From an uncultured Candidatus Saccharibacteria bacterium (GTDB taxonomy: Bacteria; Patescibacteriota; Minisyncoccia; Minisyncoccales; UBA1441): DNA of 34,028 nt. The notes under the pieces were generated by a model. It saw nothing but the letters and a program-made list of their open reading frames with translations, ran no database searches and was not told the DNA's origin. Position numbers and translations under genes: made by a program. Shown here in pieces: positions 15,295 through 31,647 of the stretch (positions are counted from its first letter, which is position 1; the number at the start of each line of letters is the position of its first letter). Location: positions 1-34,028 of the forward strand of contig CAZNED010000004.1 in assembly GCA_964572275.1 (NCBI GenBank), written 5' to 3'.

Positions 15295-15738
15295 ATGAAA
15301 GTAATTTTAAATCAAGATGTGCCTAAATTAGGAGTGAAAGGCGAAATAAAAGATGTTGCAAAAGGGTATGCTCGCAATTTTCTCTTTTCAAACAATTTTG
15401 TTAAACTTGCTACAAAATCCAATTTAGCACAACTACAGCGACTACAAGAATCTAAAACACTTATGCAGAAGAAACAAGCAATTCAAGCTCGGGAATTCGC
15501 TAAAAACATCGCAGAGAAGATATTTATATTACCGGTCGAAGTAGGGGATAAGGGGCAATTATTCCAAGCGATAGATGTTGTTCAAATTTCGGACCTATTG
15601 ACAAAAGAAGGATTTCCTGTTAATAAAACACAAATAATAATCGGTAAACCGATCAAAGAATTGGGTAAATTTGAGATTGATATTAAATTAACACCGGAAA
15701 TTATCGCTAAGGCAAAGCTAGAAGTCAGCGCACGTTAA
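15295..15738 (+). CDS. rplI: 50S ribosomal protein L9
   Basis: [40 protein letters not shown]. Confidence 0.96.
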
Positions 15739-15997
15739 GCACTTTAACAATTCTTTGTCGTCCGTCAAAACTTATTTTTCGACGAGTTTGAAACTCAAGT
15801 ATTCCAGCTTGAGCAGCATAAAGAGTATCATCTCGACCGATTTTAACGTTATGCCCGGGAATGAATTTTGTTCCACGTTGACGAACTAAAATCATACCAG
15901 CCCGTACCGGTTGTCCACCAAAGATCTTTACACCTAGTCTTTGTGACTGAGAATCTCTTGAATTGGCAGTTGCTTTTTTGGAAGCTTTCTTAGACAT
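15725..15997 (-). CDS. rpmA: 50S ribosomal protein L27
   Basis: [33 protein letters not shown]. Confidence 0.96.
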
Positions 15998-16019
15998 GAT
16001 TTCAATAAATTAATAACGC

Positions 16020-16048
16020 ATTATAATTGATTTAGGCGTTTTTGTCTA
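16020..16048 (-). promoter_or_regulatory. Sigma70 promoter for rpmA
   Basis: On the - strand: TAGACA (16048-16043), 17 bp, perfect TATAAT (16025-16020). Confidence 0.65.
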
Positions 16049-16055
16049 GTCGATT

Positions 16056-16223
16056 ATGGATGAAAAAATCTATAATATAAAAGAAAAAATAAAGAGGGAA
16101 GGGGAAAAGATAAAATTTTTTATTGTAATTTTTCTATTGTCTTTTTTGGCCTTTGGTTTCGGATATCTTGCAGCTCAATATCAAGCGAGAGAGCCTTTAC
16201 AAATAGAAAATTTCATTAATTAA
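16056..16223 (+). CDS. Small single-pass membrane protein, 55 aa (absent from the ORF track)
   Basis: Hand translation MDEKIYNIKEKIKREGEKIKFFIVIFLLSFLAFGFGYLAAQYQAREPLQIENFIN; clean TM segment; fills the rpmA-xer gap; ATTATG start context like neighbouring genes. Confidence 0.7.
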   Translation: MDEKIYNIKEKIKREGEKIKFFIVIFLLSFLAFGFGYLAAQYQAREPLQIENFIN

Positions 16224-17190
16224 GCGATTTTCCTCCATGAAAGCGCTTATGAAGATCTTTTAAGCGTTTGTTCGTAACGTGAGTATATATTTGCGTGGTA
16301 GCAATATTCTGATGCCCTAAGAATTCTTGAACTGTTCGCAAATCAGCCCCTTGGTTTAATAAATCTGTAGCGAAGGAATGTCTTAAAGTATGCGGCGTAG
16401 TGTTAATAGATAATCCGGCTTGTAAAGAATATTTTTTAATTATTTTCTCGACAGAGCGTATAGTAAGACGATGGCTGGAGCCATGAGATGCTCTATAGCT
16501 AATAAATAAAGGTTCTGGACCGTCTAAATTCGGTTTAACAATACGATCACGAACTTGTAAATATCGATTTAACCATTGCACTGATCTTTCTGAAAAGTAA
16601 ACAGTCCGAGTATAATTTCCTTTACCAACGATACTTAATTCAATAGAAGCTTGGTTTGTTTGGGCGTCTCTAAATTGTTTTCTGTTCAAAGATATTAATT
16701 CACTGATCCTTAGACCTGTGGAAAACAGAATTTCCATAATTGCTCGGTCGCGTAAACCAATGAAAGATTCAATATTAGGTATCTGTAGCAATTTATTTAA
16801 TTGTTCGAGATTAAGAAATTCTACTTTTTTGGTTTTTTTCTGTTTAGCTAATTCTATTTTCTCGGAGGGGAGAGACTTGATATTTTTAGCAGCAAAAAAG
16901 TTTAATAAGCTTCTTAAGGCGATTAAATAATAATTTTGGGTTACTTTCTTCAAAGTGCGTTGATTTTTATCAGCTGCTCTAGCTAAGAAGACTCGATACT
17001 GCCAAATATGATCTGAATCTATTTGGTGTGGCCTGAGCGATTCTAGATTATTAATTCTTAGCCAGTAAGAAAATTTATTCAAGAAACGATCATAATTTTC
17101 TTGTGTTTTACTGGATAGTCCTTTTTCAACGTCTAGCCAGTCTAAAAAATCAGGAATATGGTCAATAATGCTTTTTGAGCTTTCTTGCAT
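16216..17190 (-). CDS. Xer-family tyrosine recombinase (XerC/XerD-like)
   Basis: N-terminal FLDWLDVEKGLSSKT; catalytic R (TGLRISE), K (GKG), HTLRH, LGH, Y (TTQIYTHV). Confidence 0.93.
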   Translation of the reverse strand: MQESSKSIIDHIPDFLDWLDVEKGLSSKTQENYDRFLNKFSYWLRINNLESLRPHQIDSDHIWQYRVFLARAADKNQRTLKKVTQNYYLIALRSLLNFFAAKNIKSLPSEKIELAKQKKTKKVEFLNLEQLNKLLQIPNIESFIGLRDRAIMEILFSTGLRISELISLNRKQFRDAQTNQASIELSIVGKGNYTRTVYFSERSVQWLNRYLQVRDRIVKPNLDGPEPLFISYRASHGSSHRLTIRSVEKIIKKYSLQAGLSINTTPHTLRHSFATDLLNQGADLRTVQEFLGHQNIATTQIYTHVTNKRLKDLHKRFHGGKSLN

Positions 17191-17195
17191 AATCT

Positions 17196-17223
17196 ATTTC
17201 GCTTAATCTACATTATGCGAACT
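17196..17223 (-). other. dif-like Xer recombination site (11-6-11)
   Basis: - strand AGTTCGCATAA-TGTAGA-TTAAGCGAAAT versus E. coli dif GGTGCGCATAA-TGTATA-TTATGTTAAAT; arms are 9/11 inverted repeats; 5 bp upstream of the xer ATG. Confidence 0.8.
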
Positions 17224-17237
17224 TGGACATCAAACAC

Positions 17238-17265
17238 ATCTTATCCCTTCTCTTGTTCTTGTCAA
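17238..17265 (-). promoter_or_regulatory. Putative sigma70 promoter of xer
   Basis: - strand TTGACA (17265-17260), 16 bp, TAAGAT (17243-17238); places the dif-like site in the 5' UTR. Confidence 0.6.
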
Positions 17266-17282
17266 ACGATAGAATCATTTGC

Positions 17283-18809
17283 TTAGAGTAATTGATAAGC
17301 TTTTTTTAATCGAGTAATTGTTTTTTGAAATCCAAGCACTGCTGCTACCTCGAACGGTCCGGCAGAATTTTCTTTCCCAGTCAAAGCTACGCGAACAGGC
17401 CAGAGAAGAGTTCCTCTGTCCCCTATCTCTTCTGCAATTTTAAGGAGAATCTCTGTAATTTTATCAATATTCCATTCTTTTTTGCAAGAAGATAGGCCAT
17501 CTATCGCTTTATTAATTGCTTGTTTAATATCTTTAGGATCTTTCCCCTTCCATATTAGCAAATCAGCAGGATATTCTATATCTTCTTTTAAGAAATAATC
17601 TACAAGATTAGTAATCTCCGATAAAACTTTCAATCTTTCTTGATAAAGACTAACTATTTTTTCTAGATATCCTAAAGAAATTATTTCACTCGTTGCCTTA
17701 ATTTTATATTCTTGTTTTGTTTCAGAAACAACCTCCAATAGATCTGCTTCTATTAAATAAGGCAAACACATATTAGTTAATATCGGTAATGATTCTTGTC
17801 TGATGTAATGTCCATTCATCCAATTTAAGCGAACGATATCAAATATTGCTGGTGATTTCTGAACTTTTTCTAAGCTGAATTTTTCAATTAATTCCTCCAT
17901 AGAATATATTTCTCTATCTGCCCCCTCGCTCCACCCTAATAAGATAATGAAATTAATCAAAGCCTGGGCAAGATATCCTGATTTTTGATAATCACTAATC
18001 GCAACAACATCTTCCCTTTTGCTTAATTTCCGCCTTGTTGGCCCTAAAACTAATGGCAAATGAGCGAATTCTGGAACATCAATTCCCATAAATTCAGCTA
18101 AAATTATCTGCTTAGGAGTGTTTGAAATATGCTCTGCTCCACGCATAACGTGAGTAATTTTCATCAAATAATCATCAATCACTACTGCTAAATTATAAAG
18201 TGGCTCTGTTACGCTTTTAGCAATAATAAAATCACCTAATTCAGAAGAATTAAATTCTGTTTTACCATAGATCAAATCATCAAAAGCAATGACTCTTTCC
18301 GTAGGAGTTTTAAGACGAATAACAGCAGGTTCGCCATTAGCTAATCTTTTCTTAGCTTCTTTAGGATCTATTTTACGACAAGTACCAAGATAGCGAGGCG
18401 GCTCACCGATACTGGCATGATATTCTTTCTGCGCCGTTAATTCTTCTTGAGTGCAAAAACAATAATAGGCCTTATCTTCGTCAAGTAATTTCTGAATATA
18501 AGATGCATATATCTCTAATCTCTTACTTTGAGAATAAGGAGCATATGGACCTCCTTTATCAGGCCCTTCGTCCCAATCAAGCCCTAGCCAGTGTAAATAA
18601 TCTATGATATTTCTTTCCCATTGTTTTTTTGAACGCTTTCGATCAGTATCTTCAATTCTTAATATAAATTCTCCGTTGTTCTGCCGCGCAAATAGATAAT
18701 TGAACAAGGCCGTGCGCACAGTTCCTATATGCAGTGGACCTGTAGGTGATGGAGCTAAACGCACTCTTACTTTATTGGGAGTATTTAATTTCAATTTTCC
18801 ATTGCTCAT
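17283..18809 (-). CDS. gltX: Glutamyl-tRNA synthetase
   Basis: RVRLAPSPTGPLHIG, LRIEDTD, YYCFC, THVMRGAEHISNT, KLSKR. Confidence 0.97.
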   Translation of the reverse strand: MSNGKLKLNTPNKVRVRLAPSPTGPLHIGTVRTALFNYLFARQNNGEFILRIEDTDRKRSKKQWERNIIDYLHWLGLDWDEGPDKGGPYAPYSQSKRLEIYASYIQKLLDEDKAYYCFCTQEELTAQKEYHASIGEPPRYLGTCRKIDPKEAKKRLANGEPAVIRLKTPTERVIAFDDLIYGKTEFNSSELGDFIIAKSVTEPLYNLAVVIDDYLMKITHVMRGAEHISNTPKQIILAEFMGIDVPEFAHLPLVLGPTRRKLSKREDVVAISDYQKSGYLAQALINFIILLGWSEGADREIYSMEELIEKFSLEKVQKSPAIFDIVRLNWMNGHYIRQESLPILTNMCLPYLIEADLLEVVSETKQEYKIKATSEIISLGYLEKIVSLYQERLKVLSEITNLVDYFLKEDIEYPADLLIWKGKDPKDIKQAINKAIDGLSSCKKEWNIDKITEILLKIAEEIGDRGTLLWPVRVALTGKENSAGPFEVAAVLGFQKTITRLKKAYQLL

Positions 18810-19942
18810 TTTAAAGATAAATAATTTATAATATATTCAGCGATTACTCTAGCTGCGCGAGGACGAGCAAACGACCAAGCAGCCTCTCCCCTCTTCTTTA
18901 ATGATTCTAAGTCACTAAAAGCATATTGTACTGATTTTAAGAAAAAATGAGGAGTGAAATTATTCTCTTCTATCACCTGCGCTCCATAAGGAGCAAATAC
19001 ATATGCATTTTTAACTTGATGATTGCTAGCCGAGTTAGCTAAAGGGATTAAAATGCTTGGTTTGCCAAATGATGCGATCTCAAAAATAGTACCTGCTCCT
19101 GCTCGGGCAATAATAAGATCTGATGCTTGGTAAGCATTCCCCGCCTCCCATTCATTTAAGAATGGATAAAGATGATAAAAATTCCAAAATTTCTTATCCA
19201 CAGCTATTTTAGCTGCTATTCTTATTTCTTCGAAATTCGCACGACCACAATGATGAATAACCTCGAATTGTTCTAGGAGAGGCTGTATTACATCCAAAAC
19301 TGTATTATTTATGGTTTTAGCCCCCTGAGAGCCTCCATAAATGAAAATAATGGGCTTGTTGGATAATATACCCAACGCCTTTCGAGCGCTTTGCTTGTCT
19401 TGCTTCAATAAATCTATCCTAATGGGGTTGCCAACATTTAAAAACCTTTTGCGATTCTCTTTATTTTCTGGAAAAGAAGTAAAGACTTCCAACGCCCATT
19501 TTGCGGCAAAACGATTAGTTTTTCCCATAACTGTGTCAGATTCATGAACGAAAATAGGAATTTGTAATAAAAGCGACCAGAATACTGTCGGGAATGCCCC
19601 ATATCCCCCTTTACAGAAAACCAGATCTGGTGAAATAAAAAATAGATATAAAAATGAAATTACAAAACTTGCCGGTATTTTAAAGAAAATGTCTACAAAA
19701 TTACGCCAAGAAAAATAGCGACGAATTTTACCGCCTAATGTAAATTTAGTTTTTACTCCTTCTTTCGGAAAAAGATCAAGCGCTAGATCATCTCGAGGGC
19801 CAATATAATATAATGCAATATCTCTGTTCTTATCTATTTTTTTCATCTCTTGCATGATTGCAAGAATTGGGAAAACATGCCCTCCACTTCCTCCACCTGT
19901 AAAAACTATTTTAAACTTATTTTTTTTATTTTTTTGAATCAT
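18806..19942 (-). CDS. murG: Lipid II GlcNAc transferase MurG
   Basis: TGGGSGGHVFP, KGGY, HESD, GNPIR, GGSQGA, RAGAGT, HQVKNA; start set at ATG 19942. Confidence 0.95.
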   Translation of the reverse strand: MIQKNKKNKFKIVFTGGGSGGHVFPILAIMQEMKKIDKNRDIALYYIGPRDDLALDLFPKEGVKTKFTLGGKIRRYFSWRNFVDIFFKIPASFVISFLYLFFISPDLVFCKGGYGAFPTVFWSLLLQIPIFVHESDTVMGKTNRFAAKWALEVFTSFPENKENRKRFLNVGNPIRIDLLKQDKQSARKALGILSNKPIIFIYGGSQGAKTINNTVLDVIQPLLEQFEVIHHCGRANFEEIRIAAKIAVDKKFWNFYHLYPFLNEWEAGNAYQASDLIIARAGAGTIFEIASFGKPSILIPLANSASNHQVKNAYVFAPYGAQVIEENNFTPHFFLKSVQYAFSDLESLKKRGEAAWSFARPRAARVIAEYIINYLSLK

Positions 19943-21029
19943 TGAGCAAAAAACCAATTCCTATAATTTGAGATGCTAAAGCAGATCCACCATAACTAAT
20001 AAATGGTAATGGCATACCCGTTAATGGAATTAATCTCAGATTTGCGGCAATATGCACGAATGCTTGCACAGCAAACCACGTTACTATTCCTATGCTTATT
20101 AAATAATGATAACGATCGGAACGATTCATAGTCAAACGAATACTGAACCAAATCCATGCAACAAAAATCAAGATCAGCGCAACCGATCCGATGAATCCCA
20201 CCTCTTCTGCTATTATAGCAAAAATTGAATCACTTATGGAGTGTGGCAGAAATCCGAATTTCTGGCGACTAAATCCTAAGCCTAAACCAAATAATCCTCC
20301 CGATCCTATAGCATAAAGCATTTGCTTAATCTGGTATACAGCTGATAGTGGCGCCCGATCTGGATCTAAGAAAGTTAACAAACGAGTTAACCGATAAGAA
20401 GAAAATCGCGTTAATGCTAAAAATCCTAAAGAAATTATAATCCCCAGCATTATTATATTTCCTATGGGCATTTCCGAGGCAAAATATATAGTTAGAGCCA
20501 CGGCAACAATAATTCCCAGAGTACTTAAATCAGGTTGAAAAATCATCAAAATACCCATGGCAAAGATTAGTACGATGAAAGTCAAGAAAAGTTTACGATA
20601 TTCTTTTCTTCCGACAAATTCTGCGGCAATATGTGAAAAATATAGGATGAAGGAAATTTTTAATAACTCTGATGGTTGAAATGAAATCGGACCCAGGCTT
20701 AACCATCTTCTACTTCCACCTAGCATTTTACCGAAATAAGGTAAAAATAATAAAATTAGTAATCCCAAATTGGCTATAAATAAATATGGTGTCAATTTTC
20801 GGAAACGATTTAAAGGAAGTTTGTAGGCGATAAATCCCAATATAAGGCCAGGGATTATGCCATGCAATAATTGTCGCTTCAAATAATAATAACTACTCCC
20901 ATATTTCGCCAGCGCTATGGGAGCAGATGTCATAGCCAATATTAATAATCCAACAAAAATCAAGACCAAGGATAAACTTATGATTATCCATTGATTATTT
21001 CGAATTTGTTCTGTATTTTTTGCTATCAT
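19926..21029 (-). CDS. ftsW: SEDS peptidoglycan polymerase FtsW
   Basis: Multi-TM; GSRRW, FQPSELLK, QPDL, GSGG, DSIFAIIAEEVG, PLTGMPLPFISYGGS; lies between murD and murG. Confidence 0.92.
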   Translation of the reverse strand: MIAKNTEQIRNNQWIIISLSLVLIFVGLLILAMTSAPIALAKYGSSYYYLKRQLLHGIIPGLILGFIAYKLPLNRFRKLTPYLFIANLGLLILLFLPYFGKMLGGSRRWLSLGPISFQPSELLKISFILYFSHIAAEFVGRKEYRKLFLTFIVLIFAMGILMIFQPDLSTLGIIVAVALTIYFASEMPIGNIIMLGIIISLGFLALTRFSSYRLTRLLTFLDPDRAPLSAVYQIKQMLYAIGSGGLFGLGLGFSRQKFGFLPHSISDSIFAIIAEEVGFIGSVALILIFVAWIWFSIRLTMNRSDRYHYLISIGIVTWFAVQAFVHIAANLRLIPLTGMPLPFISYGGSALASQIIGIGFLLNDSKK

Positions 21030-22446
21030 CGCCTATTTTTTGAACCCAATAATTAAAGGTCTCTCCCCTATCTTGATAATCTTTGAAAGTGCTAAAACTA
21101 GCTGAAGCAGGAGAAAGAAGGCAGATTTTTCCCGGAGGCGTTACTCGATAAGCGTGGGTTATCGCGCCTTTCATCGTTTTTACATGTTTAATTTTCGGCG
21201 AAGGTTGATTGTGCTTATGTGCCATATCTTTCACTAACAATGCAATTCTAGGGCCAGTAATTGGAAACGTGATTAAATGTTTAATTCCACAATCTACAAT
21301 GTTCTGGGCTAATTTACGATAATCTAAAAATTTATCAGAACCACCAACGATTAATGTTGCAATTCTGTAATTGAGAGATGCCAGGGCTGACATGCTCGCT
21401 TCTGGTATTGTAGCCGCCGAATCATTATAGAATTCAATTTCTTTATATTTGCCTACAAATTCTAAACGAAAACGTGGGGATTTATATGTTTTACATCGGG
21501 ATACTATCGATTTATCAGACACGCCCATCATTTTAGCAATTATTACGGCAGGAAGAAGATTATGTTTTAAAGAGAGATTAACCCCTCGCAAATCTTTTTC
21601 TTTTAATATTAATTTATGTTTCTCTTGTGCTTTGGATCGATACCATAATCCTACATCATCCCAAAAACAAAAGCTTTTTTTGTTACCGGTTATGCTGAAA
21701 GTAATTTTTTGAGCCTGTGAATCATTAGCTATCGCCGATATTTTTTTATCATCCATGTTATAAATTAAAAAATCATTGTGCGATTGATGTATGGCAATAT
21801 TACTCTTTGCTTTGAAATAAGATCTCGGAGTTTTAAAATAATCAAGATGATCCGGCATTAAATTCAGAAAAACTGCTATATGCGGACTGATTTTTAAGCG
21901 ATCTAATTGATGAGATGACATCTCGTAGACAAACCAGTTTTTCTTGTTTTTTGTTTTATTCCAAAAAGTAAAAGCTGGGACTCCCATATTTCCCAAAAGA
22001 ATGCTATCAATTTTATCTTTGATTAGATGATGAATAAGCGTAGAGGTACTGCTCTTTCCTTTTGTGCCAGTAACTCCGATCGTTTGTTGATACATCCGAT
22101 TTAAGAATATTTCCGTCTCAGATGTAACGATGATATTTTGAGATAGAGCTTTTTTAATTTCTCGAGTAGCAAAAGCTATTCCTGGAGATTTTATAACAAC
22201 TTGATATTTAGAAATATCTCTAAAACAATCATGGCCGAAATGTAAATCCAATAATGAGTCATTCTTCATGATTTCTTTCCATCCTAAATCCATTTCTTGT
22301 AATGATCTACTATCAGCTAATCCTAATCGTTTCTGCGGATAAAATTGGCGCAATAATTTATATGAACTCTCCCCTTCTCTTCCTAAGCCATAGATCAAAA
22401 CTTTTTTCTTGGCTAAATTATTTATTGTTATAGATGACTTGTCCAT
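20995..22446 (-). CDS. murD: UDP-MurNAc-L-Ala:D-Glu ligase
   Basis: GLGREG, KSPGI, GVTGTKGKSST, EMSSHQL, DHLDY, NDSAAT, LSPASASF...RG. Confidence 0.94.
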   Translation of the reverse strand: MDKSSITINNLAKKKVLIYGLGREGESSYKLLRQFYPQKRLGLADSRSLQEMDLGWKEIMKNDSLLDLHFGHDCFRDISKYQVVIKSPGIAFATREIKKALSQNIIVTSETEIFLNRMYQQTIGVTGTKGKSSTSTLIHHLIKDKIDSILLGNMGVPAFTFWNKTKNKKNWFVYEMSSHQLDRLKISPHIAVFLNLMPDHLDYFKTPRSYFKAKSNIAIHQSHNDFLIYNMDDKKISAIANDSQAQKITFSITGNKKSFCFWDDVGLWYRSKAQEKHKLILKEKDLRGVNLSLKHNLLPAVIIAKMMGVSDKSIVSRCKTYKSPRFRLEFVGKYKEIEFYNDSAATIPEASMSALASLNYRIATLIVGGSDKFLDYRKLAQNIVDCGIKHLITFPITGPRIALLVKDMAHKHNQPSPKIKHVKTMKGAITHAYRVTPPGKICLLSPASASFSTFKDYQDRGETFNYWVQKIGDDSKKYRTNSK

Positions 22447-23200
22447 TAATGTTCCTGTTAAGGCAAAGACGACTAATTAGTTTCAAATGATATGGTTTCG
22501 CGCTAAAGTAAAATTCATGATCCTGATCGCTTTTTTTAAATACGGGATTTTTTTGTAGAAAATCTTTAACATTTAAAGCTAAAGCATTAGCTGGGTCAAT
22601 AATGTTTATTTTTGGACCCATAATTTCAGTGATGATATCCCTTAAAAGTGGATAATGAGTACAGCCCATAACAAGAGTATCTATCCCTTTTTCCCGCAAA
22701 GGAATTAAATATTCTTGGGCTATTTCTTTTGTCCCAGGTCGGTCCATCCAACCTTCTTCAATAATTGGAACAAATAATGGACATGCTTGCATATGTAAAG
22801 ACGCAATCTGACCAGATTCTTCCAACCTTTTAGAATATATATTGCTTTCAATCATTCCTGGTGTTCCAATTACTCCAATTTTTCTGTTTTGACTAGTTGT
22901 CAATGCTTCTTTAAGGCCAGGAGTTAGAACATCAAAAACTGGCACCTCTAATTCTTCGTGTAATAAATCAAATGCCCATGAAGATGCTGTGTGGCAAGCG
23001 ATGATAATTAATTCAGCACCATTTTGTATGAGCCATCTGGAATTATCTTTGGACCATTGCTGAATTAAGCTCGCTTGCTTTGTTCCGTACGGCAATCGAG
23101 CGGTATCTCCGAAATAAATTATTTGATATTCAGGTAGATAATTTAATAATTCTTTTACGACAGTTAATCCACCCAAACCAGAATCAAAAACGCCAATCAT
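22418..23200 (-). CDS. murI: Glutamate racemase
   Basis: GVFDSGLGGLTV, GDTARLPYG, ACHTAS, GCTHYP. Confidence 0.96.
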   Translation of the reverse strand: MIGVFDSGLGGLTVVKELLNYLPEYQIIYFGDTARLPYGTKQASLIQQWSKDNSRWLIQNGAELIIIACHTASSWAFDLLHEELEVPVFDVLTPGLKEALTTSQNRKIGVIGTPGMIESNIYSKRLEESGQIASLHMQACPLFVPIIEEGWMDRPGTKEIAQEYLIPLREKGIDTLVMGCTHYPLLRDIITEIMGPKINIIDPANALALNVKDFLQKNPVFKKSDQDHEFYFSAKPYHLKLISRLCLNRNINGQVIYNNK

Positions 23201-23201
23201 A

Positions 23202-24272
23202 TTACCATAAAAGCCTAATAGCTACTCCGATTAATGCCATGACCAATCCAATGACCCAAAATCTCATAGTCACTTTATAATGAGGCCAGCCTTTCGCTTC
23301 AAAATGGTGATGGATTGGGGCGGCTAAAAATAATTTCCGACCATAAATTTTCTTGTGTAATAGCTGGATAATAACTGATCCAGATTCTAATACTAATAAA
23401 AATCCTATGATCGGTAAAACAAATAGCGAATCAGTGAAGAAGGCTATCACTGTTAAAGTTGCGCATAGACCCATAACTGTCTCTCCAAGATAAAATCGAG
23501 CAGGAGGAATATTGAACCATAAAAAAGCCAACAAAGCTCCTACTAATACTAAACAAAAGGCTGCTAAGTCATACTGCAAATTTAAAAATGCAATAATAGC
23601 AAATGCCCCGAAGATAATAGAGAATGTTCCTCCAGCTAAACCATCTAAACCATCGATGATGCCGCCACTATACACTCCCAACATGGTGATAATAAAAATA
23701 GGGATCAACCACCATCCCACAAAAATACTACCAATTCCCGGTATACCAATAGTCGTAACACCTAATTTGAAATAAAACCACCAACCCCCAATTAAACCGA
23801 TCAAACCAATAAGCCCTATTCTCCATGAAAGCTTTAGTCCTCCACCGATATATTTCCCCTTTCCTCTAATTTGGAGTAAATCATCCACTAGCCCTAAAAC
23901 AGAAGCTGAAAACAAGGCGAAAATAGGTAACCAGGTTTGAGCTCTATTAACAAAATTAATTTGCCCAGTTAAACCGATGTCGAATTTAGAAAGAATTAAG
24001 AAAATTAACGCTACTAATAAAGGAATGGCCCAAATAATTATTCCCCCAACACGAGGAATCCTTGTCCCCTCGCCACCGTGGAATTTACTAAATACTTCCA
24101 ATTTTTTTCCATCAATGCTTTTATCCTTATCTTTTTTTCTCCAAAGTTGATGTTTATAGATAAAATCAGTAAACTTTGGAATGATAGCCAAGGACAATAA
24201 AAAGGAAAGGAAGCCAAGCCCGAATATGCGGACTGTTTGCCAAATGATATAAGAATCAGTTTCTAAAACCAT
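23202..24272 (-). CDS. mraY: Phospho-MurNAc-pentapeptide translocase
   Basis: Multi-TM; PRVGG, LGLVDD, DGLDGL, FLWFNIPPARFYLGE, APIHHHFE. Confidence 0.94.
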   Translation of the reverse strand: MVLETDSYIIWQTVRIFGLGFLSFLLSLAIIPKFTDFIYKHQLWRKKDKDKSIDGKKLEVFSKFHGGEGTRIPRVGGIIIWAIPLLVALIFLILSKFDIGLTGQINFVNRAQTWLPIFALFSASVLGLVDDLLQIRGKGKYIGGGLKLSWRIGLIGLIGLIGGWWFYFKLGVTTIGIPGIGSIFVGWWLIPIFIITMLGVYSGGIIDGLDGLAGGTFSIIFGAFAIIAFLNLQYDLAAFCLVLVGALLAFLWFNIPPARFYLGETVMGLCATLTVIAFFTDSLFVLPIIGFLLVLESGSVIIQLLHKKIYGRKLFLAAPIHHHFEAKGWPHYKVTMRFWVIGLVMALIGVAIRLLW

Positions 24273-25296
24273 AATAGTTAGAAGAATAAAGATATGCCTT
24301 TGGTAGCCACTCTACAATTTTTTTAGTATCTTCAAAACGATTCTTGGAGCCTAAAACAACAATCACTAAGTGAGTGTCGATATCCTTCATCTTAAAAACA
24401 GAAATTAGGCATTCGCCAGCTGCTGGAAGATATCCTGTTTTACCACCTTCTAGTTCTGAATAATATCCAAGCAATTGATTATTATTAATCACTCTATAAT
24501 AGAAAGCGCTAGTTTCGTCATATATGGGATAAGTATTAGTGGCCAGGATTGATCTGATAATTTCATAATCCTGATCTTGCCAAAGATAAGCGATTAATTG
24601 GGTTAATTCATGAGCTGTCGAGCGATTCCCCATTCCATTTGATCCATTTAATCCGCTGGGCGTAACAAATGTTGTGTTATCTAGGCCTAATAAAATCGCT
24701 TTTTTATTCATTTCATTTATGAAGGCGGTGACACCTCTGTTTTCGGCCAGAGCATAAGCAGCTCCATTGTTAGATTCCATCAACATTAAATACAGAATAT
24801 TTTTAACATTCAAATAATCGCCTTCTTTGAGAATACCCACTTGCCCATCCTGATCAGAGGCCTCTCTCGAAATGGTAACTTGCTGATCAAGTTCAAATAA
24901 ATCTATGGCTACTATGGCCGTCATTAATTTAGTTATGCTTGCAATTATATAGGGATGATCAGCATTCCTGGCTAATAAATTTTTTACACTTCCGTCTAAG
25001 CGAATCTCTATGGCTGAAGCAGCATAAAGATCTAAGTCTGGCTCAGGAACAGACCAATTCCTAATTGGCCTGTAGGCATTCAATAATCGATCTACTTGAT
25101 CATAATTTTGAGCAATAAGATTTTCTGGATTTAAAATTCTCCAATAGAAATAATTAGTTAACAATGGCCGAATAACAAAAAAAGCAAAAGTTATTAAAAC
25201 AACTCCAGTTATTATGAGTATTATTTCTTGACGATTTATAATAAATATATTCCTGTGATTCTTACTTCTATTTTTCTGCATAAAATTTACTATCAT
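24256..25296 (-). CDS. D-alanyl-D-alanine carboxypeptidase (peptidase S11)
   Basis: N-terminal TM; SxxK (ASITK), SxN (SNN), KTG (GGKTGY). Confidence 0.9.
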   Translation of the reverse strand: MIVNFMQKNRSKNHRNIFIINRQEIILIITGVVLITFAFFVIRPLLTNYFYWRILNPENLIAQNYDQVDRLLNAYRPIRNWSVPEPDLDLYAASAIEIRLDGSVKNLLARNADHPYIIASITKLMTAIVAIDLFELDQQVTISREASDQDGQVGILKEGDYLNVKNILYLMLMESNNGAAYALAENRGVTAFINEMNKKAILLGLDNTTFVTPSGLNGSNGMGNRSTAHELTQLIAYLWQDQDYEIIRSILATNTYPIYDETSAFYYRVINNNQLLGYYSELEGGKTGYLPAAGECLISVFKMKDIDTHLVIVVLGSKNRFEDTKKIVEWLPKAYLYSSNYYGFRN

Positions 25297-26681
25297 TTAT
25301 TTTCCGTATTCTTCAAAGATAAATTCAATTCTCTTAATTGTTCATGAGTTATCCCGGCCGGAGAACCTGTCATTAATTCTTTTCCTCCTTCAGTTTTTGG
25401 GAAAGGAATAACTTCGCGAATATTTTTCTCATCTAACATGATTGATAAAAATCGATCTAAGCCAATGGCAATACCACCATGTGGAGGAACTCCAAAACTA
25501 AATGCTTCCAATAAATGCCCAAAATTATCTTTGATAGTCTTTTCATCATGGCCTAAAACTTCAAAGATTGTTTGAAGCATTTCTGATTTATAAGTACGCA
25601 AACTCCCTCCCCCAATTTCAGCTCCATTAAGAACTAAATCATATTGAAATGCTTTAATCTGACCAGGATTATTTTTGATTTCATCAAGATTATCCGTTTG
25701 AGGGCGCGTAAAAGGATGATGGACAGAAGTCCATCCGATTTGATCAGCTGGTTTCTCAAACATAGGAAAATCAATGACAAAAGCGAATGCCAATTCTTTA
25801 TTATCGTTTTTATCGGATCGTAAATCTGGACGATCGCTCTGATAAAGTTTCATTGCCTCATCGTAAGTTAATCTAGGAAATGGGAATTCTTTTATTTTCT
25901 TATCGGAAAAAACTGTTTCCACCACTTCTTTAAACATATTTTCCATCATCTCTAAAATTTCTTTTTGATCGACAAAAGATAATTCTATATCTAATTGTGT
26001 GAATTCTGCCTGACGATCAGATCTAAAATCTTCATCTCGAAAACAACGCGCAATTTGAAAATATCTCTCTAGGCCAGCAACCATTAATAATTGTTTGTAT
26101 TGTTGTGGACTTTGAGGAAGTGCGTAAAAAGTTCCAGGGTAATGTCGAGATGGAACGACGAAATCTCTTGCTCCTTCAGGGGTCGATCTGGCCAAGACGG
26201 GTGTGTCTATTTCTCGAAATCCCTGATCACTTAAAAGACGTCTCAGTAATTGAAATACTTTGTGTCTTACTGTTAAATTGCGCTGCATCCTCGGTCTTCT
26301 TAGATCTAAGTAACGATATTTTAATCTACTCTCTTCACTGATGTCAGAGCCACTTTCTCTCAAATCAAAGGGTGGCGTTTCGGCTTTGCTAAGCACCGTA
26401 ATTTCATTTATTTCCATTTCTATCCGCCCAGTCTCTAAATCTTCATTGACCATATTCTCGGGCCTACTTTTCACCAAGCCGACTATTTCTACAACCCATT
26501 CTGGTCTCAAGGAGTCGACTCCTTCCATGCCTTTAGAGCCGACTGCTTGGATTGAACCACTGCGATCACGCAAATCAATAAAAATAATTTTGCCGTGATC
26601 GCGGCAACTGCTTATCCATCCATCGACCTTAATTGTTTCCCCTATTAATTTAGGGGCATCGGCAATAAGAGTTCTATTCAT
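25293..26681 (-). CDS. aspS: Aspartyl-tRNA synthetase, short form lacking the GAD insertion domain, probably non-discriminating
   Basis: RDHG, FIDLRD, RLKYRYLDLRR, STPEGARDF, LPQSPQ, CFRDED, PPHGGIAIGLDR; SDRPDLR runs straight into FVIDFPMFE; start at ATG 26681. Confidence 0.94.
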   Translation of the reverse strand: MNRTLIADAPKLIGETIKVDGWISSCRDHGKIIFIDLRDRSGSIQAVGSKGMEGVDSLRPEWVVEIVGLVKSRPENMVNEDLETGRIEMEINEITVLSKAETPPFDLRESGSDISEESRLKYRYLDLRRPRMQRNLTVRHKVFQLLRRLLSDQGFREIDTPVLARSTPEGARDFVVPSRHYPGTFYALPQSPQQYKQLLMVAGLERYFQIARCFRDEDFRSDRQAEFTQLDIELSFVDQKEILEMMENMFKEVVETVFSDKKIKEFPFPRLTYDEAMKLYQSDRPDLRSDKNDNKELAFAFVIDFPMFEKPADQIGWTSVHHPFTRPQTDNLDEIKNNPGQIKAFQYDLVLNGAEIGGGSLRTYKSEMLQTIFEVLGHDEKTIKDNFGHLLEAFSFGVPPHGGIAIGLDRFLSIMLDEKNIREVIPFPKTEGGKELMTGSPAGITHEQLRELNLSLKNTENK

Positions 26682-27048
26682 CTTTATTGTGAAAATAATT
26701 TTTAATCTTATCAACTATTTCCTGAGGATCATGATCTGCTTTAATAATATATTCCTTAATTCCGAATTTCTGCGCTTTTTTTTCTGTTTCTGGATTGTCA
26801 TAATTTGAAAAGACGATAACTGGAATGTTTTTAAAAACTCCTTCTTTTTCGATTTGTTCTAAGAAAAAAATCCCATTTTCGTTTGGTAAAATAATATCCA
26901 AAACAATCAGATCTGGCTTTTCTGATTTAACCAAAGAAATTCCTTCTTTAGCAGTACGCGCTATTGCTACTTCGAATCCCGCTCTAATAAATTTCTCTTC
27001 ATACATTCGAATCAACATTTCTTCATCTTCTATAAGCAGAATTTTCAT
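26674..27048 (-). CDS. Stand-alone response regulator receiver domain
   Basis: KILLIEDE, PDLIVLDIILP (phospho-Asp), NG, FSN, YIIK; no output domain. Confidence 0.92.
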   Translation of the reverse strand: MKILLIEDEEMLIRMYEEKFIRAGFEVAIARTAKEGISLVKSEKPDLIVLDIILPNENGIFFLEQIEKEGVFKNIPVIVFSNYDNPETEKKAQKFGIKEYIIKADHDPQEIVDKIKNYFHNKDE

Positions 27049-27722
27049 TTTTCCTCTTTCTTAATTTTATTACCTAAGTTTTTCAAAAAATCTTTGGCAA
27101 CCTCTTGTCCGCCCAAGCCAAAAGCCAGACCGAATGCTAAAACTAGGAAATATATCAATCCTTGGAACAAGATAGTTGTCATTTCTGGCACAATTCCAAT
27201 TTGCCTAAGAATGACTAAGATAGCTAAACCCCAGATCCCCCATCTAGCGAATTTTTCGGCAACAAAAGCATAGCTTGCATCAATCCAATTAATGGAAATA
27301 CGGATAATATTTCCAGCTGCATCAGCTAGGATGGTAGCAACAATGAAAATCAACATAGCTATGAGAAGATTTGGAAGCCAGCGAACTATTGCCATAATAA
27401 AATTAGCGATGCTCGGTAGGCTTAGTGCTTCCGCAGCCATTGACAAGAATAGAAGGATTAATAGCCAGCGCACTATCCATCCCCCCATATCAGATAAGTT
27501 TGATTTTATCCCCGATTGCTCTAATCCTCTTTTCCAACTATTTTTTTGGAAAAGCTGATCTATGCGAATTTTTCGCAATAATCGACTAGTTAAATGGCCT
27601 AACCAAATAGCCAATAAACATCCCATTATAAAAATCACTAAAATAAGAACAAGATTAGGCAATTGATCAAGAAATCTAGTCCACATTTCAACAATAATTG
27701 TTTGTAAATTAAATGGATTCAT
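27045..27722 (-). CDS. TM_helix repeat / CmpX-like (small mechanosensitive channel-related) membrane protein
   Basis: Two LPNL-led hydrophobic repeats; C-terminal AFGLAFGLGG. Confidence 0.75.
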   Translation of the reverse strand: MNPFNLQTIIVEMWTRFLDQLPNLVLILVIFIMGCLLAIWLGHLTSRLLRKIRIDQLFQKNSWKRGLEQSGIKSNLSDMGGWIVRWLLILLFLSMAAEALSLPSIANFIMAIVRWLPNLLIAMLIFIVATILADAAGNIIRISINWIDASYAFVAEKFARWGIWGLAILVILRQIGIVPEMTTILFQGLIYFLVLAFGLAFGLGGQEVAKDFLKNLGNKIKKEEK

Positions 27723-27729
27723 ATTGGTA

Positions 27730-27758
27730 ATATTATCAAAATAAACTTATTTCATCAA
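27730..27758 (-). promoter_or_regulatory. Putative sigma70 promoter (leaderless) for the TM_helix gene-RR-aspS-cell wall run
   Basis: - strand TTGATG (27758-27753), 17 bp, TGn-TAATAT (27735-27730), 7 nt, then ATG. Confidence 0.5.
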
Positions 27759-28355
27759 TTAAAAATACTGATGATATGCATCTTCGATTTGTAAAAAGAC
27801 TTTATCTGGCGTTTTTTCTCCGTCAATCATAATGATGTGGTCAAATTCCTTAGCAACTCTTTCATATCCGGCCCAAACCTTTTTCAATGTTTCTGTCTTT
27901 TCAAAAAGCTCCAAATTAAATCTATTCTTATTAATTCTTGCCAAACAAGTTTCGGGGCTAGTCTTAATGATAAAAGTTAAGTCAGGTTCAATAAAATTTT
28001 TATTGATTTCTTTTAGCCAATTCCAATCACTTATTTCTGTTGATCCGAAAGCTATTGTTGAAAAAAAGTAACGATCTGTAATTACAGAAATTCCTTGATT
28101 TAATAAGGGCAGTATTTCCTTATCTAAATGATGCGCTCGATCGGCAGCGAAAAGCAATTGCAGACATTCTGGGCTAGAGTGCCAATCATGTGTCAATTGC
28201 CCCCTCACTAAACCACCAATAATATTATTTGTCGGTTCTTTAGTAAGATGAACTCGTTCATTCATCGCCTGGATAAAATCTGTTAATTTATTGGCTTGAG
28301 TCGTTTGCCCTGATCCATCTAATCCTTCAAATGCTATAAATTTGCCTCTTTCCAT
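27759..28355 (-). CDS. tmk: Thymidylate kinase
   Basis: FIAFEGLDGSG(Q)TTQ, TKEP, LLFAADR, ITDRYFFS, PDLTF. Confidence 0.92.
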   Translation of the reverse strand: MERGKFIAFEGLDGSGQTTQANKLTDFIQAMNERVHLTKEPTNNIIGGLVRGQLTHDWHSSPECLQLLFAADRAHHLDKEILPLLNQGISVITDRYFFSTIAFGSTEISDWNWLKEINKNFIEPDLTFIIKTSPETCLARINKNRFNLELFEKTETLKKVWAGYERVAKEFDHIIMIDGEKTPDKVFLQIEDAYHQYF

Positions 28356-28366
28356 AATACTTATTA

Positions 28367-28422
28367 TTCTACTATAAAAACTTTTTTCAGCAATTTACTT
28401 ATAATTTCAAGTTTAGTATAAT
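28367..28422. promoter_or_regulatory. Divergent promoter region between tmk and the accessory operon
   Basis: + strand TTTACT (28394-28399), 17 bp, TATAAT (28417-28422); - strand TTGCTG, 16 bp, TAGAAT ending 10 nt before the tmk ATG. Confidence 0.45.
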
Positions 28423-28443
28423 AACGAAGCAACTTGTTAGAAT

Positions 28444-29637
28444 ATGTTTTTAAACGGAAAAATAAAAATTTTAATCTTTCTATTTTCCCTGTTTTTGGTA
28501 TGCGGAGCATTATTATACGAAGTTATCGCCGAAGAGACTAGCGACTCAGTTAACGATAATACTTGCATTCATTTATTCGTCCAAGATGAATGTATGCCCT
28601 GCACGAGCTTATTGTCATTCATAGAAACAATATCTGATAAATATAATGTTGATTTACGAATATATAATATTTCCGGTAATATCGAAGCAACGGAAATGTA
28701 TCTTAACCTCAGCAAATATTATGATATTCCGCAGACTGGTTTACCTATTGTTTTTATTGGTGAAACATATTTCATAGGGGAAGAAAGAATCAGAGAGAAT
28801 TTAGAAGAAACTATAAGCCTATGCCAAGCTCAAGGGTGTCCCTGCCCAGTAAAACAGTTAGAGAAAGCAATCACTCAATTTCCCCAAAAAGACGATTTCA
28901 TTGCCCCTAAGGAATTGATGAAATTGAATCTCATGGGGAAGGAACTTACTGTTTCTACTGCTAGCTCACTTCCATGGTTAACCATAGTATTAGGCCTAAT
29001 TGACGGGATCAATCCTTGTACTTTTTCAGTTCTATTTTTCCTTTTGACATATTTATTAACTATCGGATCACGCCGTAAAGCAATTAAAATTGGAATAGTT
29101 TTTGTACTAACTACCTTTTTTATCTATCTGATTTTTATGCTTGGCATTTTGAATTTAATTTCTATCATCGGTGCCATCCATAAAATAAAAATTATTGTCG
29201 CTGTTATTGCCCTAATAGCCGGAATCATCATGTTAAAAGATTTCTTTTTTTATGGTCGCTGGATTTCTTTAGAAATCCCATCTTGGGCTAAACCGAATAT
29301 CAAAAAATTAATCCAAAAAGGTACTTTCCCCTCAGCCATTATTCTTGGGATTTTATCTTCATTAGTTGAGCTACCTTGCACTTCTGGAATACCTCTTGTT
29401 TTCACAACAATCTTAGCGCAACAACATATAGCCGAAATTCCCGCCTTTTTGTATTTGATTGTATACAATATTTTTTACGTCATTCCATTATTGATTGTCA
29501 TAGGTTTAGTTGCTTTTGTCTTATTAAAAATGGAAGAAGCTGAATCGTGGAGATTAAAATTTAGAAAATACATGAGGCTTGTTTCAGGTATTATTTTAAC
29601 TTTCTTGGGAATAGTTTTATTATTTGGATTTATGTGA
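28444..29637 (+). CDS. Thioredoxin/glutaredoxin-like domain fused to a CcdA/DsbD-type transmembrane domain
   Basis: Signal/TM anchor, CMPC, GLPIVFIG (cis-Pro loop), CxxxxCPC linker, TM domain with DGINPC and ELPC cysteines, about 6 TM helices. Confidence 0.8.
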   Translation: MFLNGKIKILIFLFSLFLVCGALLYEVIAEETSDSVNDNTCIHLFVQDECMPCTSLLSFIETISDKYNVDLRIYNISGNIEATEMYLNLSKYYDIPQTGLPIVFIGETYFIGEERIRENLEETISLCQAQGCPCPVKQLEKAITQFPQKDDFIAPKELMKLNLMGKELTVSTASSLPWLTIVLGLIDGINPCTFSVLFFLLTYLLTIGSRRKAIKIGIVFVLTTFFIYLIFMLGILNLISIIGAIHKIKIIVAVIALIAGIIMLKDFFFYGRWISLEIPSWAKPNIKKLIQKGTFPSAIILGILSSLVELPCTSGIPLVFTTILAQQHIAEIPAFLYLIVYNIFYVIPLLIVIGLVAFVLLKMEEAESWRLKFRKYMRLVSGIILTFLGIVLLFGFM

Positions 29638-29639
29638 TT

Positions 29640-30389
29640 ATGAGTTTTTTGGGTAAAATCTTATCTGGAAATACACTATACTACCCCGGCTGTTTAACAA
29701 AATTCGTAGGTAGTGATTTGGAAAGAAAAAATAAAAGAATATTACAAATAATCGGCCTTGATTTTATCATGTTGCCGGAGATTGAATTGTGTTGTGGCTC
29801 CCCTGTCTTGAAGGCAGGATATGTTGAAGATTTCAGACAAATAGCAGAGAAAAACCAAAAGATATTATCTGATCATGGTGTTGGGCAAATCGTCACTAAT
29901 TGCCCGGCCTGTTTTTTAACTTTCCATAAAGATTATCAGGAAATTTTAGGCAATCATTGGAAAATAAAGGTAAACCATACCAGTCAAGTATTTCATCGTG
30001 CCCTAATAGAAAAGCGCCTACCTTTATCAAAGAATTCCGGGAAAATAACCTATCATGATCCCTGTCATTTAGGGCGTCAAGCTGGCATTTATCGAGAGCC
30101 CCGCGAATTGATCAAGGCTTGTGGCTATGATTTGATAGAGATGAAATTAAACCAAAAAAATAGTTATTGCTGTGGCGGAGGAGGTGGAGTTCAGTCTAAT
30201 GAACAGCTTTTATCAAATAAAATCGCCCAAGAAAGGATCCGGCAAACACGAGAAGAAACTTCTGCCGATATTATCTGTACAGCTTGCCCTATGTGTTATT
30301 TGCATTTACGTAATAATTCTGATTCTCAAAAGGGACCTAAGGTTATCGAATTGACTGAATTATTAGAGAGCGCTATCAACCATGATTAA
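29640..30389 (+). CDS. CCG-domain Fe-S protein (LutA/GlcF/HdrB-D family)
   Basis: Two CCG domains: YYPGC...CCGSP...NCPAC and YHDPCHLGR...CCGGGGG...ACPMC; start ATG 29640 (GTG 29634 possible). Confidence 0.88.
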   Translation: MSFLGKILSGNTLYYPGCLTKFVGSDLERKNKRILQIIGLDFIMLPEIELCCGSPVLKAGYVEDFRQIAEKNQKILSDHGVGQIVTNCPACFLTFHKDYQEILGNHWKIKVNHTSQVFHRALIEKRLPLSKNSGKITYHDPCHLGRQAGIYREPRELIKACGYDLIEMKLNQKNSYCCGGGGGVQSNEQLLSNKIAQERIRQTREETSADIICTACPMCYLHLRNNSDSQKGPKVIELTELLESAINHD

Positions 30390-31647
30390 AGACAATGAAT
30401 TCATTGCCCCTAATGAACGTTTGCTTATGATACGTATTTTTAACGATTATATCCGAAAAAGAGAAAGGACTCTTCTTGATCAAGGACGAGACTATGAATC
30501 ATATCGGGAAAAACTTTATCAGATTAAAAAGAATTCTCTTGAGAACATATGGTCATTGTGTGAAAAATCTACAGCCAATCTAAAGAAAAATGGGATTAAT
30601 GTGTTTTGGGCTAAGGATGCCGAAGAAGCCAGAGTGATTATCATCCGCCTAACCAATGATAAAAAGAAAATTGTAAAAACAAAAAGTAATACATTTCATG
30701 AAATTGATCAGGAAGGATTTTTGGCAGATAAAGAATTGACAGAAACCGATTTGGGAGATTTTTTAAATAGTTTGAATCAATCATCAGGAATCCATCCAGT
30801 ATTACCAGCCCTAAATCTATCTATCCATGAAATTGTTAATATAATTGAGCGTAAATTCGGAGTTAAAGTTGAAGCTAACTCTCAAAGTATTGTTGATTAT
30901 ATTAAGCCTATTTTACGCAGAAAAATAATTGAAGCCGATGTTGCAATTACTGGAGCTAATGCTATTACTGCTGATGGCCAAATTATCTTATTGGAAAATG
31001 AAGGAAATATATCATTAGCCACCAGAATACCCAGCATGCATATTATCGTGTCTGGATTTGAAAAAATAGTTGATAGCTTATCCGAAGCGATGGAATTAAT
31101 CGAAGCTTCTGTAATCTGGAGTACGGGTCAAAAATTTCCAAGTTATGTTTCTATAATTTCCGGACCTTCAAAAACAGCTGATATAAATAATGAATTAATT
31201 ATCGGAGCTCAAGGAGCAAAAGACGTGAATTTAATACTTGTTGATAATGGTCGCAAAGAATTAATTTCAGCCGGACTAGGAGAATTACTCTACTGCCTGA
31301 ACTGTGGTGCCTGTTTAAATTCATGCCCCGTGTTTAGGGAAATAGGAAAATCTTATGGAGGTAAATATCTCGGAAGCAAAGGTGTTATCTTTACAGCTTT
31401 CTCAGAGAGCCTTCTAGGCGCTAAGAAAGCAAATTGTTTTTCTTGCACACTTTGTGGTGCCTGTTATGACAACTGCCCGGTCAAAATAGATCTTCCCAGC
31501 TTAATGAAAAAAGTAAGAGAGCATCTGGTTAATAACGATATGAACACTGATGTCAATAAGAAGATGATTGATAATATTCGTAAGTCCGGTAATCCCTTCG
31601 GAGAAATAAAAAAGGGCACTATGCCCGATGAGTTGTATTGTTGTTAA
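30382..31647 (+). CDS. LUD-domain protein with a 2x[4Fe-4S] ferredoxin domain (LutB-like)
   Basis: ETDLG, ITGAN, ENEGNI, ISGPSKTADI, CLNCGACLNSCP, CTLCGACYDNCP; ends in ELYCC. Confidence 0.87.
   Translation: MIKDNEFIAPNERLLMIRIFNDYIRKRERTLLDQGRDYESYREKLYQIKKNSLENIWSLCEKSTANLKKNGINVFWAKDAEEARVIIIRLTNDKKKIVKTKSNTFHEIDQEGFLADKELTETDLGDFLNSLNQSSGIHPVLPALNLSIHEIVNIIERKFGVKVEANSQSIVDYIKPILRRKIIEADVAITGANAITADGQIILLENEGNISLATRIPSMHIIVSGFEKIVDSLSEAMELIEASVIWSTGQKFPSYVSIISGPSKTADINNELIIGAQGAKDVNLILVDNGRKELISAGLGELLYCLNCGACLNSCPVFREIGKSYGGKYLGSKGVIFTAFSESLLGAKKANCFSCTLCGACYDNCPVKIDLPSLMKKVREHLVNNDMNTDVNKKMIDNIRKSGNPFGEIKKGTMPDELYCC

Follow-up and report, generated by a model that had tools for sequence, protein, structure and literature searches.

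A likely single-recombinase Xer/dif module of Patescibacteria, with the dif-like site placed behind the predicted xer promoter

We analysed a stretch of 34,028 nucleotides (the window) from an uncultured Candidatus Saccharibacteria bacterium of the Patescibacteriota (GenBank assembly GCA_964572275.1, contig CAZNED010000004.1, positions 1 to 34,028), in which a 28-bp dif-like site stands directly in front of xer, a gene for an Xer-like tyrosine recombinase. Comparisons of sequence and genome context make it likely that this 28-mer is the dif site of the chromosome and that the adjacent gene encodes a single Xer recombinase acting on it, the two forming a module for the resolution of chromosome dimers. 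This reading draws on the core architecture of the site, its single copy, its terminus position, its conservation and its cognate recombinase, together with the covariation of its arms and the matching of site and recombinase types. A module of this kind had been put forward in an original prediction made from the letters of the window, and all the sequence tests that it had called for support it (one PF00589 gene, one 28-mer, a conserved motif upstream of xer, the skew maximum and the arm covariation). From the same comparisons we infer that Xer would bind to the site and carry out catalysis there, and that the reaction would depend on FtsK.

The locus is read on the minus strand. The predicted xer promoter (score 10/12) consists of a -35 hexamer TTGACA (17260..17265), which has an equivalent TTGACA in relatives, and, after a spacer of 16 nt, a -10 hexamer TAAGAT (17238..17243). 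The site follows 14 nt beyond the end of the -10 hexamer, with a left arm AGTTCGCATAA (17213..17223) that matches the Escherichia coli XerC arm at 9/11 positions, a 6-bp central region TGTAGA (17207..17212) and a right arm TTAAGCGAAAT (17196..17206) that mirrors the left arm at 9/11 positions. The complete 28-mer, AGTTCGCATAA-TGTAGA-TTAAGCGAAAT (17223..17196), is separated from the xer ATG at 17190 by the 5 bp AGATT, and xer itself (16216..17190) encodes 324 aa. Judged by the predicted promoter, the dif-like site would lie inside the 5' untranslated region of xer. The original prediction had named the 28-mer at 17196-17223, its 5-bp distance from the start codon and the TTGACA-16-TAAGAT promoter upstream of it, all of which are real and can be read directly from the sequence, and a recount against E. 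coli dif returned its values of 9/11 for the XerC arm, 5/6 for the spacer and 9/11 for the mirror. It had also stated that the right arm mirrors the left instead of resembling the XerD arm; the mirror stands, but the contrast was overstated, as the right arm still agrees with the XerD arm at 8/11 positions. Contigs from three metagenomes span the site with the arrangement unchanged. Two joints, at 17221 and 17224, were disregarded, having sides of fewer than 30 letters.

Compared with dif of E. coli K12, GGTGCGCATAATGTATATTATGTTAAAT (as given in the available part of PMC2731167), the window site is identical at 22/28 positions (left arm 9/11, spacer 5/6, right arm 8/11), and its first 15 nt are identical to the dif of Neisseria meningitidis in the table of the same source. 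The window contains the 28-mer once, without a second copy at up to 3 mismatches, and matches occurred in 0 of 100 shuffled sequences, so that a chance occurrence is excluded. The genome to which the window belongs (G000; 470,812 bp in 15 contigs, 92% complete) likewise holds the 28-mer in one place only, with no second copy at up to 8 mismatches; the only other match is the same palindromic site read on the opposite strand, at 6 mismatches. With a pattern for sites of the window's kind (type 1), five of five type-1 genomes of the family gave exactly one genome-wide match, each beside xer, and in G031, which is complete, the score is 37.0 bits for the site as opposed to 14.0 bits for the runner-up. 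One site per chromosome was found in the window genome, the five family genomes and G031, with a second complete genome, G032, as the exception that is weighed below.

The recombinase gene is single as well. One PF00589 gene, the only tyrosine recombinase gene found, is present in the window genome; paralogues, which the original prediction had taken to be absent, were not found there, and neither was the recombinase pair of an XerC/XerD system. The protein combines a phage-integrase catalytic domain (PF00589, 143 bits) with an N-terminal SAM-like domain (PF02899), and its best curated-family (NCBIfam) matches are XerD (240.1 bits, below the cut-off of 329.6) and XerC (228.6 bits, below 335.15), while the models for XerA (NF040815; 185.6 bits, cut-off 220) and XerS (NF003462; 120.1 bits, cut-off 267) are not reached either. 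Its catalytic residues R161, K190, H267, R270, H293 and Y302 are invariant in 22 orthologues. Among solved chains, the closest is E. coli XerD (1a0p, E 1.9e-40) and the weakest Xer match is XerH (5jjv, E 3e-14). In an even sample of the phylum, an Xer profile (E <= 1e-40) matched 144/151 genomes, 141 of the 144 exactly once. A possible partner is encoded on contig C2 of the window genome, where a 741-aa frame for FtsK carries PF01580 (214 bits) and the gamma domain PF09397 (97.8 bits). RecA is encoded in the genome too, and DnaA lies on a contig other than that of xer. A predicted complex of Xer residues 120-324 with the FtsK gamma region scored 0.00 and was used neither for nor against the interaction. 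On contig C2, the gene immediately downstream of ftsK, running in the same direction, is recA (67226-68008 and 68137-69213; L033).

The position of the site on the chromosome is that of a replication terminus. Genes of the window run on the plus strand up to 15738 and on the minus strand from 16216 to 28355, and GC skew changes from positive to negative at this switch, with the cumulative GC skew maximum (200-bp bins) at 17,200, on the site; by gene direction and cumulative skew, we placed a terminus-type switch at 16000..17400. Among the large contigs of the genome, C4, that of the window, is the only one with a clean change from positive to negative skew. As the others keep a skew of one sign (C3 is weak in mid-contig and positive in its last bin), one of the two switch points is on C4. 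Since skew depends on the direction of genes and not on replication alone, closed or long records of relatives were examined. In G031, a complete Nealsonbacteria genome of 639,534 bp (the record of locus L053), the site at 29,666 lies at the skew maximum (29,466; 500-bp bins) and opposite dnaA (303.7-305.1 kb), the skew minimum being at 295 kb. The site of the 394-kb contig G034 is at 293,815, with the skew maximum at 294,000. In G032, complete at 647,540 bp, the xer-linked site is at 430,500 and the maximum at 432,500, with dnaA about 50 kb from the skew minimum. The sites of the window, G031, G034 and G032 are thus within 0.2-2 kb of the cumulative skew maximum, and the tally over all records stands at three clear agreements, one partial agreement and one counter-example to strict uniqueness (G032).

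Several further observations concern replication strands. Gene direction and GC skew switch a second time, divergently, at 28355-28444 of the window, 11 kb from the terminus-type switch, and the plus-strand genes from 28444 on would be on the lagging strand. The spacer of the window promoter contains the octamer GAGAAGGG (17245-17252, minus strand), pointing toward the site, which we take to be the recognition word of Bacillus subtilis SpoIIIE. Its counts on the leading and lagging strands, uncorrected for base composition, are 17:2 in G000, 12:0 in G032 and 21:5 in G031. A search of G031 and G032 for FtsK-orienting words by strand skew gave no candidate, the top words being purine-rich coding words at about 2:1.

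The module is conserved among relatives. In a first set of 30 relatives of the same order, 24 have an orthologue of the window Xer (at least 48% identity), which gives 25 loci with the window's own. All 25 carry a dif-like site upstream of xer, at 4-173 bp and in one orientation, scoring 18-40 bits, with the next best match of each locus at no more than 7.7 bits; since 23 of them had supplied the scoring matrix, the count of 25/25 is partly circular. A further set, the best 80 loci of 577 relatives (some of whose genomes overlap the first set), covers Nealson-, Staskawicz-, Jorgensen-, Magasanik-, Falkow- and Kuenenbacteria, Paceibacterota and others. Here, a site reaching 17 bits or more lies in plus orientation at 5-312 bp (median 43 bp) upstream in 64 loci, against a best unrelated match of 16.4 bits across the 80 loci of 5 kb. 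The site is in the opposite orientation at three loci and 459-1383 bp upstream at four; the remaining nine score below 17 bits, five of them with the top match still 16-45 bp upstream and two with less than 130 bp of upstream DNA. The conserved motif that the original prediction had expected in front of xer orthologues is therefore present in both sets. Among 29 more distant loci, eight have a recognisable site within 700 bp, and several have different palindromes upstream. We conclude that support for the module is good in the window's order and in several lineages related to it, and that outside these its presence is no more than a suggestion.

Gene order is conserved together with the site. 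A Glu/Gln-tRNA synthetase gene precedes xer in 24/25 type-1 loci (in the window at 17283..18809, minus strand, PF00749), and the gene for ribosomal protein L27 follows wherever the locus extends that far (15725..15997, minus strand, PF01016). In the window, a hydrophobic open reading frame (ORF) of 55 aa (16056-16223, plus strand; no Pfam match) shares 8 bp with the 3' end of xer.

Partial and rearranged copies of the site occur at some loci. Single copies of the left arm (ATGTCGCACAATAT..) are present in G031 at 30,973 (L116) and in G032 at 431,574 and 429,968 (L168), with no further copies in these genomes; they border the dif-xer pair within about 0.3-0.6 kb and are directed away from the pair. 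Half-sites like these are the second-best matches just after xer in many loci, and none was found in the window's own genome. At L227, 37 bp upstream of xer, the arms are swapped (right arm, 5 bp, left arm), and L105 has a full site 625 bp upstream as well as a copy of left arm and spacer at the xer start. The arrangements of L227 and L105 could be traces of insertions at the site.

How the arms vary bears on the question of whether one protein would bind both. We aligned 92 distinct sites without gaps, out of 93 distinct sites of at least 17 bits; the L003 site, identical to the window's, was replaced by the latter, and that of L245, about 690 bp upstream, where the examined stretch ends, was omitted. 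The central region is the variable part of this alignment, and T4, C5, G6, A8, A10 and A11 of the left arm are invariant or nearly so. Outer positions change in pairs: positions 3 and 26 are G:C in 45 sites, T:A in 34, G:T in 2 and otherwise combined in 11, and positions 2 and 27 are C:G in 23, T:A in 16 and G:C in 8. The covariation score of 0.166 compares with 0.086 +/- 0.009 in shuffles (reached by 0/500) and with 0.105 at most after sliding of the partner, figures that are inflated by the relatedness of the 92 sequences; mirrored cells of the alignment are complementary in 69%, vs 22-39% with the partner slid. The outer arm positions thus covary as mirror images, as would be expected if one protein bound both arms, which supports the original prediction on this point. 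In 90/92 sites, A stands at both position 8 and position 21, a fixed break of the symmetry, and the site therefore has polarity.

The reaction that we propose would run as follows. Two Xer monomers would bind the two mirror-related arms of a site. An odd number of RecA crossovers would yield a chromosome dimer, whose two dif copies FtsK would join at the septum, and strand exchange by Xer across the 6-bp spacer would restore monomers. The polarity that the fixed inner asymmetry (A8, A21) confers on the site could decide in which order the two strand exchanges take place.

A second pair of recombinase and site (type 2) occurs among the relatives. A type-1 orthologue is missing in six of the 30; five of these belong to two genera of the window's family and one (G023) to another family. 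The recombinase of the six, Xer-like and below the family cut-offs, is 30% identical to the window Xer, and its gene takes the slot of xer, with the tRNA synthetase gene on one side and the genes for L27, L9 and an S41 peptidase on the other. Upstream of the gene is an 11-6-11 site of its own, (G/T)GAGTATAA-N6-T(A/T)ACACTCA, for example at L028:1235-1256 in front of the gene at L028:1297-2229. In 14 of the 21 type-2 loci (L027-L030, L252-L268), TTGACA-N16-17-TAnnnT is followed by the site at 4-12 nt. Across the order, type 2 occurs in 18/121 genomes scattered over families, and the families f1, f2 and f15 hold both types. Within family f1, the five type-2 genomes have no match to the type-1 pattern (0/5), and four of the five have one match each to the type-2 pattern, upstream of the gene, the contig of the fifth starting inside the gene; the type-1 genomes (two partly different sets of five) have one type-1 match each beside xer (5/5) and no type-2 match (0/5). 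Recombinase type and site type are thus cleanly matched by sequence in this family. The difference between the types would have arisen either by rapid divergence of the pair in place or by replacement of a cassette. In place of the 55-aa ORF of the window, type-2 loci have a small membrane-like ORF, which lies upstream of the promoter and next to the synthetase gene. One bin, G013 (85% complete, 2% contamination), has a type-2 gene together with other recombinase gene fragments on contig C66 and type 1 on another contig, and may be mixed.

The promoter seems to be part of the conserved unit. We scanned 72 of the 80 further loci for a promoter anchored on the site (TTGACA at 5/6 or better, 16-18 nt, TAnnnT at 4/6 or better), leaving aside the four loci with distant sites and four with a top match below 13 bits. 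A promoter-like motif ending -5 to +16 nt before the site was found at 57/72 loci, mostly at 10-12 nt (about 11); the background of the scan was 324 matches in about 353 kb. By the same criteria, none of the 72 loci has a promoter between site and ATG, and nine are without any promoter. The spacing from promoter to site is kept at short and long distances of the site from the ATG alike (5 to 312 bp), and we therefore regard promoter plus site as the conserved unit, in which the site would begin a few bases after the predicted transcript start; for the window, this start would be near 17231. Some promoter spacers (L042, L045, L046, L052, L056, L084, L091; type-2 L030, L258, L259) contain a GC-rich inverted repeat whose halves change together between loci (CAGGC..GCCTG, CCCCT..AGGGG), which is absent from the window promoter and could be a terminator of the upstream gene overlapping the promoter, or a binding site.

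This layout suggests a regulatory role. Fused to the xer promoter, the dif-like site would occupy about +8 to +36 of the transcript, and Xer bound there would hinder RNA polymerase and keep its own level down. Such self-repression, as in the original prediction, appears quite possible to us, if a little short of an even call; the architecture observed is the one that it predicts. For the same layout of XerS/difSL, both autoregulation and a safeguard against insertions have been proposed (Le Bourgeois 2007; available part of PMC1914069), and our data, with which either agrees equally well, do not separate the two. More tentatively, the fusion of promoter and dif may represent a functional coupling in which the occupancy of dif by Xer would set xer transcription, a homeostat with one site, and in which the cassette of promoter, site and gene would have been swapped as a whole several times at the terminus. 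This proposal is made because the spacing of about 11 nt between -10 hexamer and site is held across a large radiation and in both recombinase/site pairs, despite their 30% protein identity and differing arm sequences.

A number of observations weigh against parts of the picture drawn so far. The complete genome G032 has a second, stronger site at 383,204-383,231 (minus strand; L166:3204-3231; 37.6 bits), inverted and 47 kb from the xer-linked one, intergenic, with neither a recombinase gene nor a promoter beside it; its spacer is TGTAGA vs TGATGG in the xer-linked site. One site per chromosome is therefore not universal, and the second site is possibly the result of a past rearrangement or the site of an element. 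In the 594-kb contig G033 (site at 523,660; 174 kb examined), the skew only flattens near the site. A strict IUPAC pattern of the site matched 20/151 genomes of the phylum sample, not above its reversed control, and only 6/24 of these matches lie beside xer; the site diverges too fast for one pattern to serve the whole phylum. About 9 of the 29 more distant loci have no recognisable site. The window genome being 92% complete, a second recombinase gene could lie in the missing part. Site-to-ATG distances range between 5 and 312 bp, so that an effect on translation, if there is one, is no conserved feature, and the predicted leader of the xer transcript does not fold better than shuffles (z -1.1). 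The one RNA run that contains any of the window reaches the L27 gene only (all runs being contigs).

Other readings of the layout have to be set against self-repression. It could be that dif and dimer resolution are as proposed and that the order of promoter, dif and gene does not reflect feedback: integration of an element at dif would part xer from its promoter, and selection would act against such an element, or site and gene would simply travel and co-evolve as one cassette. The safeguard was proposed as the alternative for difSL-xerS (Le Bourgeois 2007, available part of PMC1914069), and it is in keeping with a search for viral contigs with dif, in which two site patterns gave 0 matches; exchange of whole cassettes would fit the two recombinase/site pairs that share one slot in a patchy distribution (type 2 in 18/121). 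However, the promoter stays on the site even where the latter is 199-312 bp from the ATG (L040, L045, L063, L113), so that long inserts are tolerated, and a safeguard does not need the tight spacing of about 11 nt between -10 hexamer and site. The long leaders weigh somewhat against a pure safeguard. We consider an explanation by safeguard or linkage rather unlikely.

The remaining readings deny that the 28-mer is dif, and were rejected on copy number, synteny, terminus position and type matching. It is very unlikely that the palindrome serves only as an operator of xer, for Xer or another regulator, with the dimer-resolution site elsewhere or nonexistent: palindromic operators are common and the site is located just after the promoter, but its 11-6-11 layout, its 22/28 identity to E. 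coli dif, the fact that it falls on the skew maximum in the window as well as in G031 and G034, the lack of any other dif-like sequence in G000 or G031 and the change of site type together with recombinase type speak otherwise. We give hardly any credence to xer as the integrase of an integrated mobile element with the 28-mer as its attachment site. The adjacency of gene and site does resemble integration modules, a comparison that has been made for XerS (available part of PMC1914069), yet the Xer profile matches 144/151 genomes of the phylum sample and 141 exactly once, the order GluRS-site-xer-L27 is fixed across the order, and G000 has housekeeping genes at the flanks and no second site to bound an element. 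Least probable of all is a DNA inversion switch for phase variation. Models of tyrosine-type invertases match weakly (68 bits vs a cut-off of 221), but such a switch needs two inverted sites where G000 has one, and the contigs from three metagenomes that bridge the site all have the same arrangement.

The single-recombinase dif module can be compared with several known Xer systems. In layout, it reads as closest to XerS/difSL of Streptococcus and Lactococcus, which shares one recombinase, a site immediately upstream of the gene, a terminus module and FtsK (Le Bourgeois 2007, PMC1914069; Nolivos 2010, PMC2965235; review PMC5357621). XerS has 356 aa and difSL 31 bp with an 11-bp central region (PMC5357621, in part), compared with 324 aa, 28 bp and a 6-bp spacer here; the window protein stays below the XerS model cut-off (120.1 vs 267 bits) and the site differs in size, while its place upstream of the gene agrees. 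For difSL, a position between promoter and ORF was a speculation of the authors (PMC1914069, in part), whereas the fusion of promoter and site is seen here in 57/72 loci. XerH/difH of Helicobacter and Campylobacter is also a single-recombinase system with a site that is gene-linked in most species (Carnoy and Roten 2009, PMC2731167; Debowski 2012, PMC3325230; Bebel 2016, PMC5241119), but the difH consensus (..TGAAAAC...TTTTCAAA..; available part of PMC2731167) is unrelated to the window site. Judged by sequence, the locus would work like XerS/difSL and XerH/difH and is a member of neither.

By sequence, the window protein and site are closest to XerC/XerD-dif, with which they share a 28-bp 11-6-11 terminus site, a left arm and spacer near-identical to proteobacterial dif, and the FtsK gamma domain. 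Unlike that system with its two recombinases, the window genome has one, below both equivalog cut-offs, and gene and site are adjacent. The situation here is the reverse of that in canonical dif, where symmetry is found at the inner arm bases and the outer ones distinguish the XerC arm from the XerD arm (from the sequences in the available part of PMC2731167). Archaeal XerA/dif likewise has a single recombinase on a conserved 28-bp dif (Cortez 2010, via the available part of PMC5357621). The original prediction had held that single-recombinase systems use non-canonical sites, with XerS and XerH as examples; the statement is incomplete, since XerA acts on a 28-bp dif, and a canonical-type site with one recombinase is therefore not unprecedented. 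XerA is reported to be FtsK-independent, whereas the window genome encodes an FtsK with gamma domain, and the available part of the source mentions no gene-site or promoter-site fusion for XerA/dif (PMC5357621).

The window Xer probably belongs to the 'Cand' subgroup of Xer-related simple tyrosine recombinases of candidate phyla, which it matches by description (Smyshlyaev 2021, PMC8138268); in the available part of that paper, these proteins are classified, with no mention of a site, a terminus position or a promoter fusion. Finally, XerL/dif of Legionellales, likened here by the description of the system, is a lineage-specific single-recombinase system from a different lineage, found by sequence analysis and then demonstrated experimentally (Nicholson et al., available part of bioRxiv 10.1101/2021.09.12.459815).

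Patescibacteria, or the candidate phyla radiation (CPR), are a very large uncultured group known almost only from metagenome assemblies. Our literature search, which had most subscription journals outside its range, found no description of this module for them; dimer resolution is an expected housekeeping function, and in the literature searched it is undescribed for this very large group. The site would provide a sequence marker of the replication terminus for Patescibacteria, of use in checking and closing genomes. The conserved fusion of promoter and site makes the 2007 speculation on XerS testable with 100 bp of DNA and one protein, and with two matched pairs of recombinase and site found in one slot, nature supplies a system in which to study the joint change or the exchange of recombinase and target specificity. 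For the organisms themselves, our findings indicate that these reduced genomes retain the resolution of chromosome dimers with a single enzyme.

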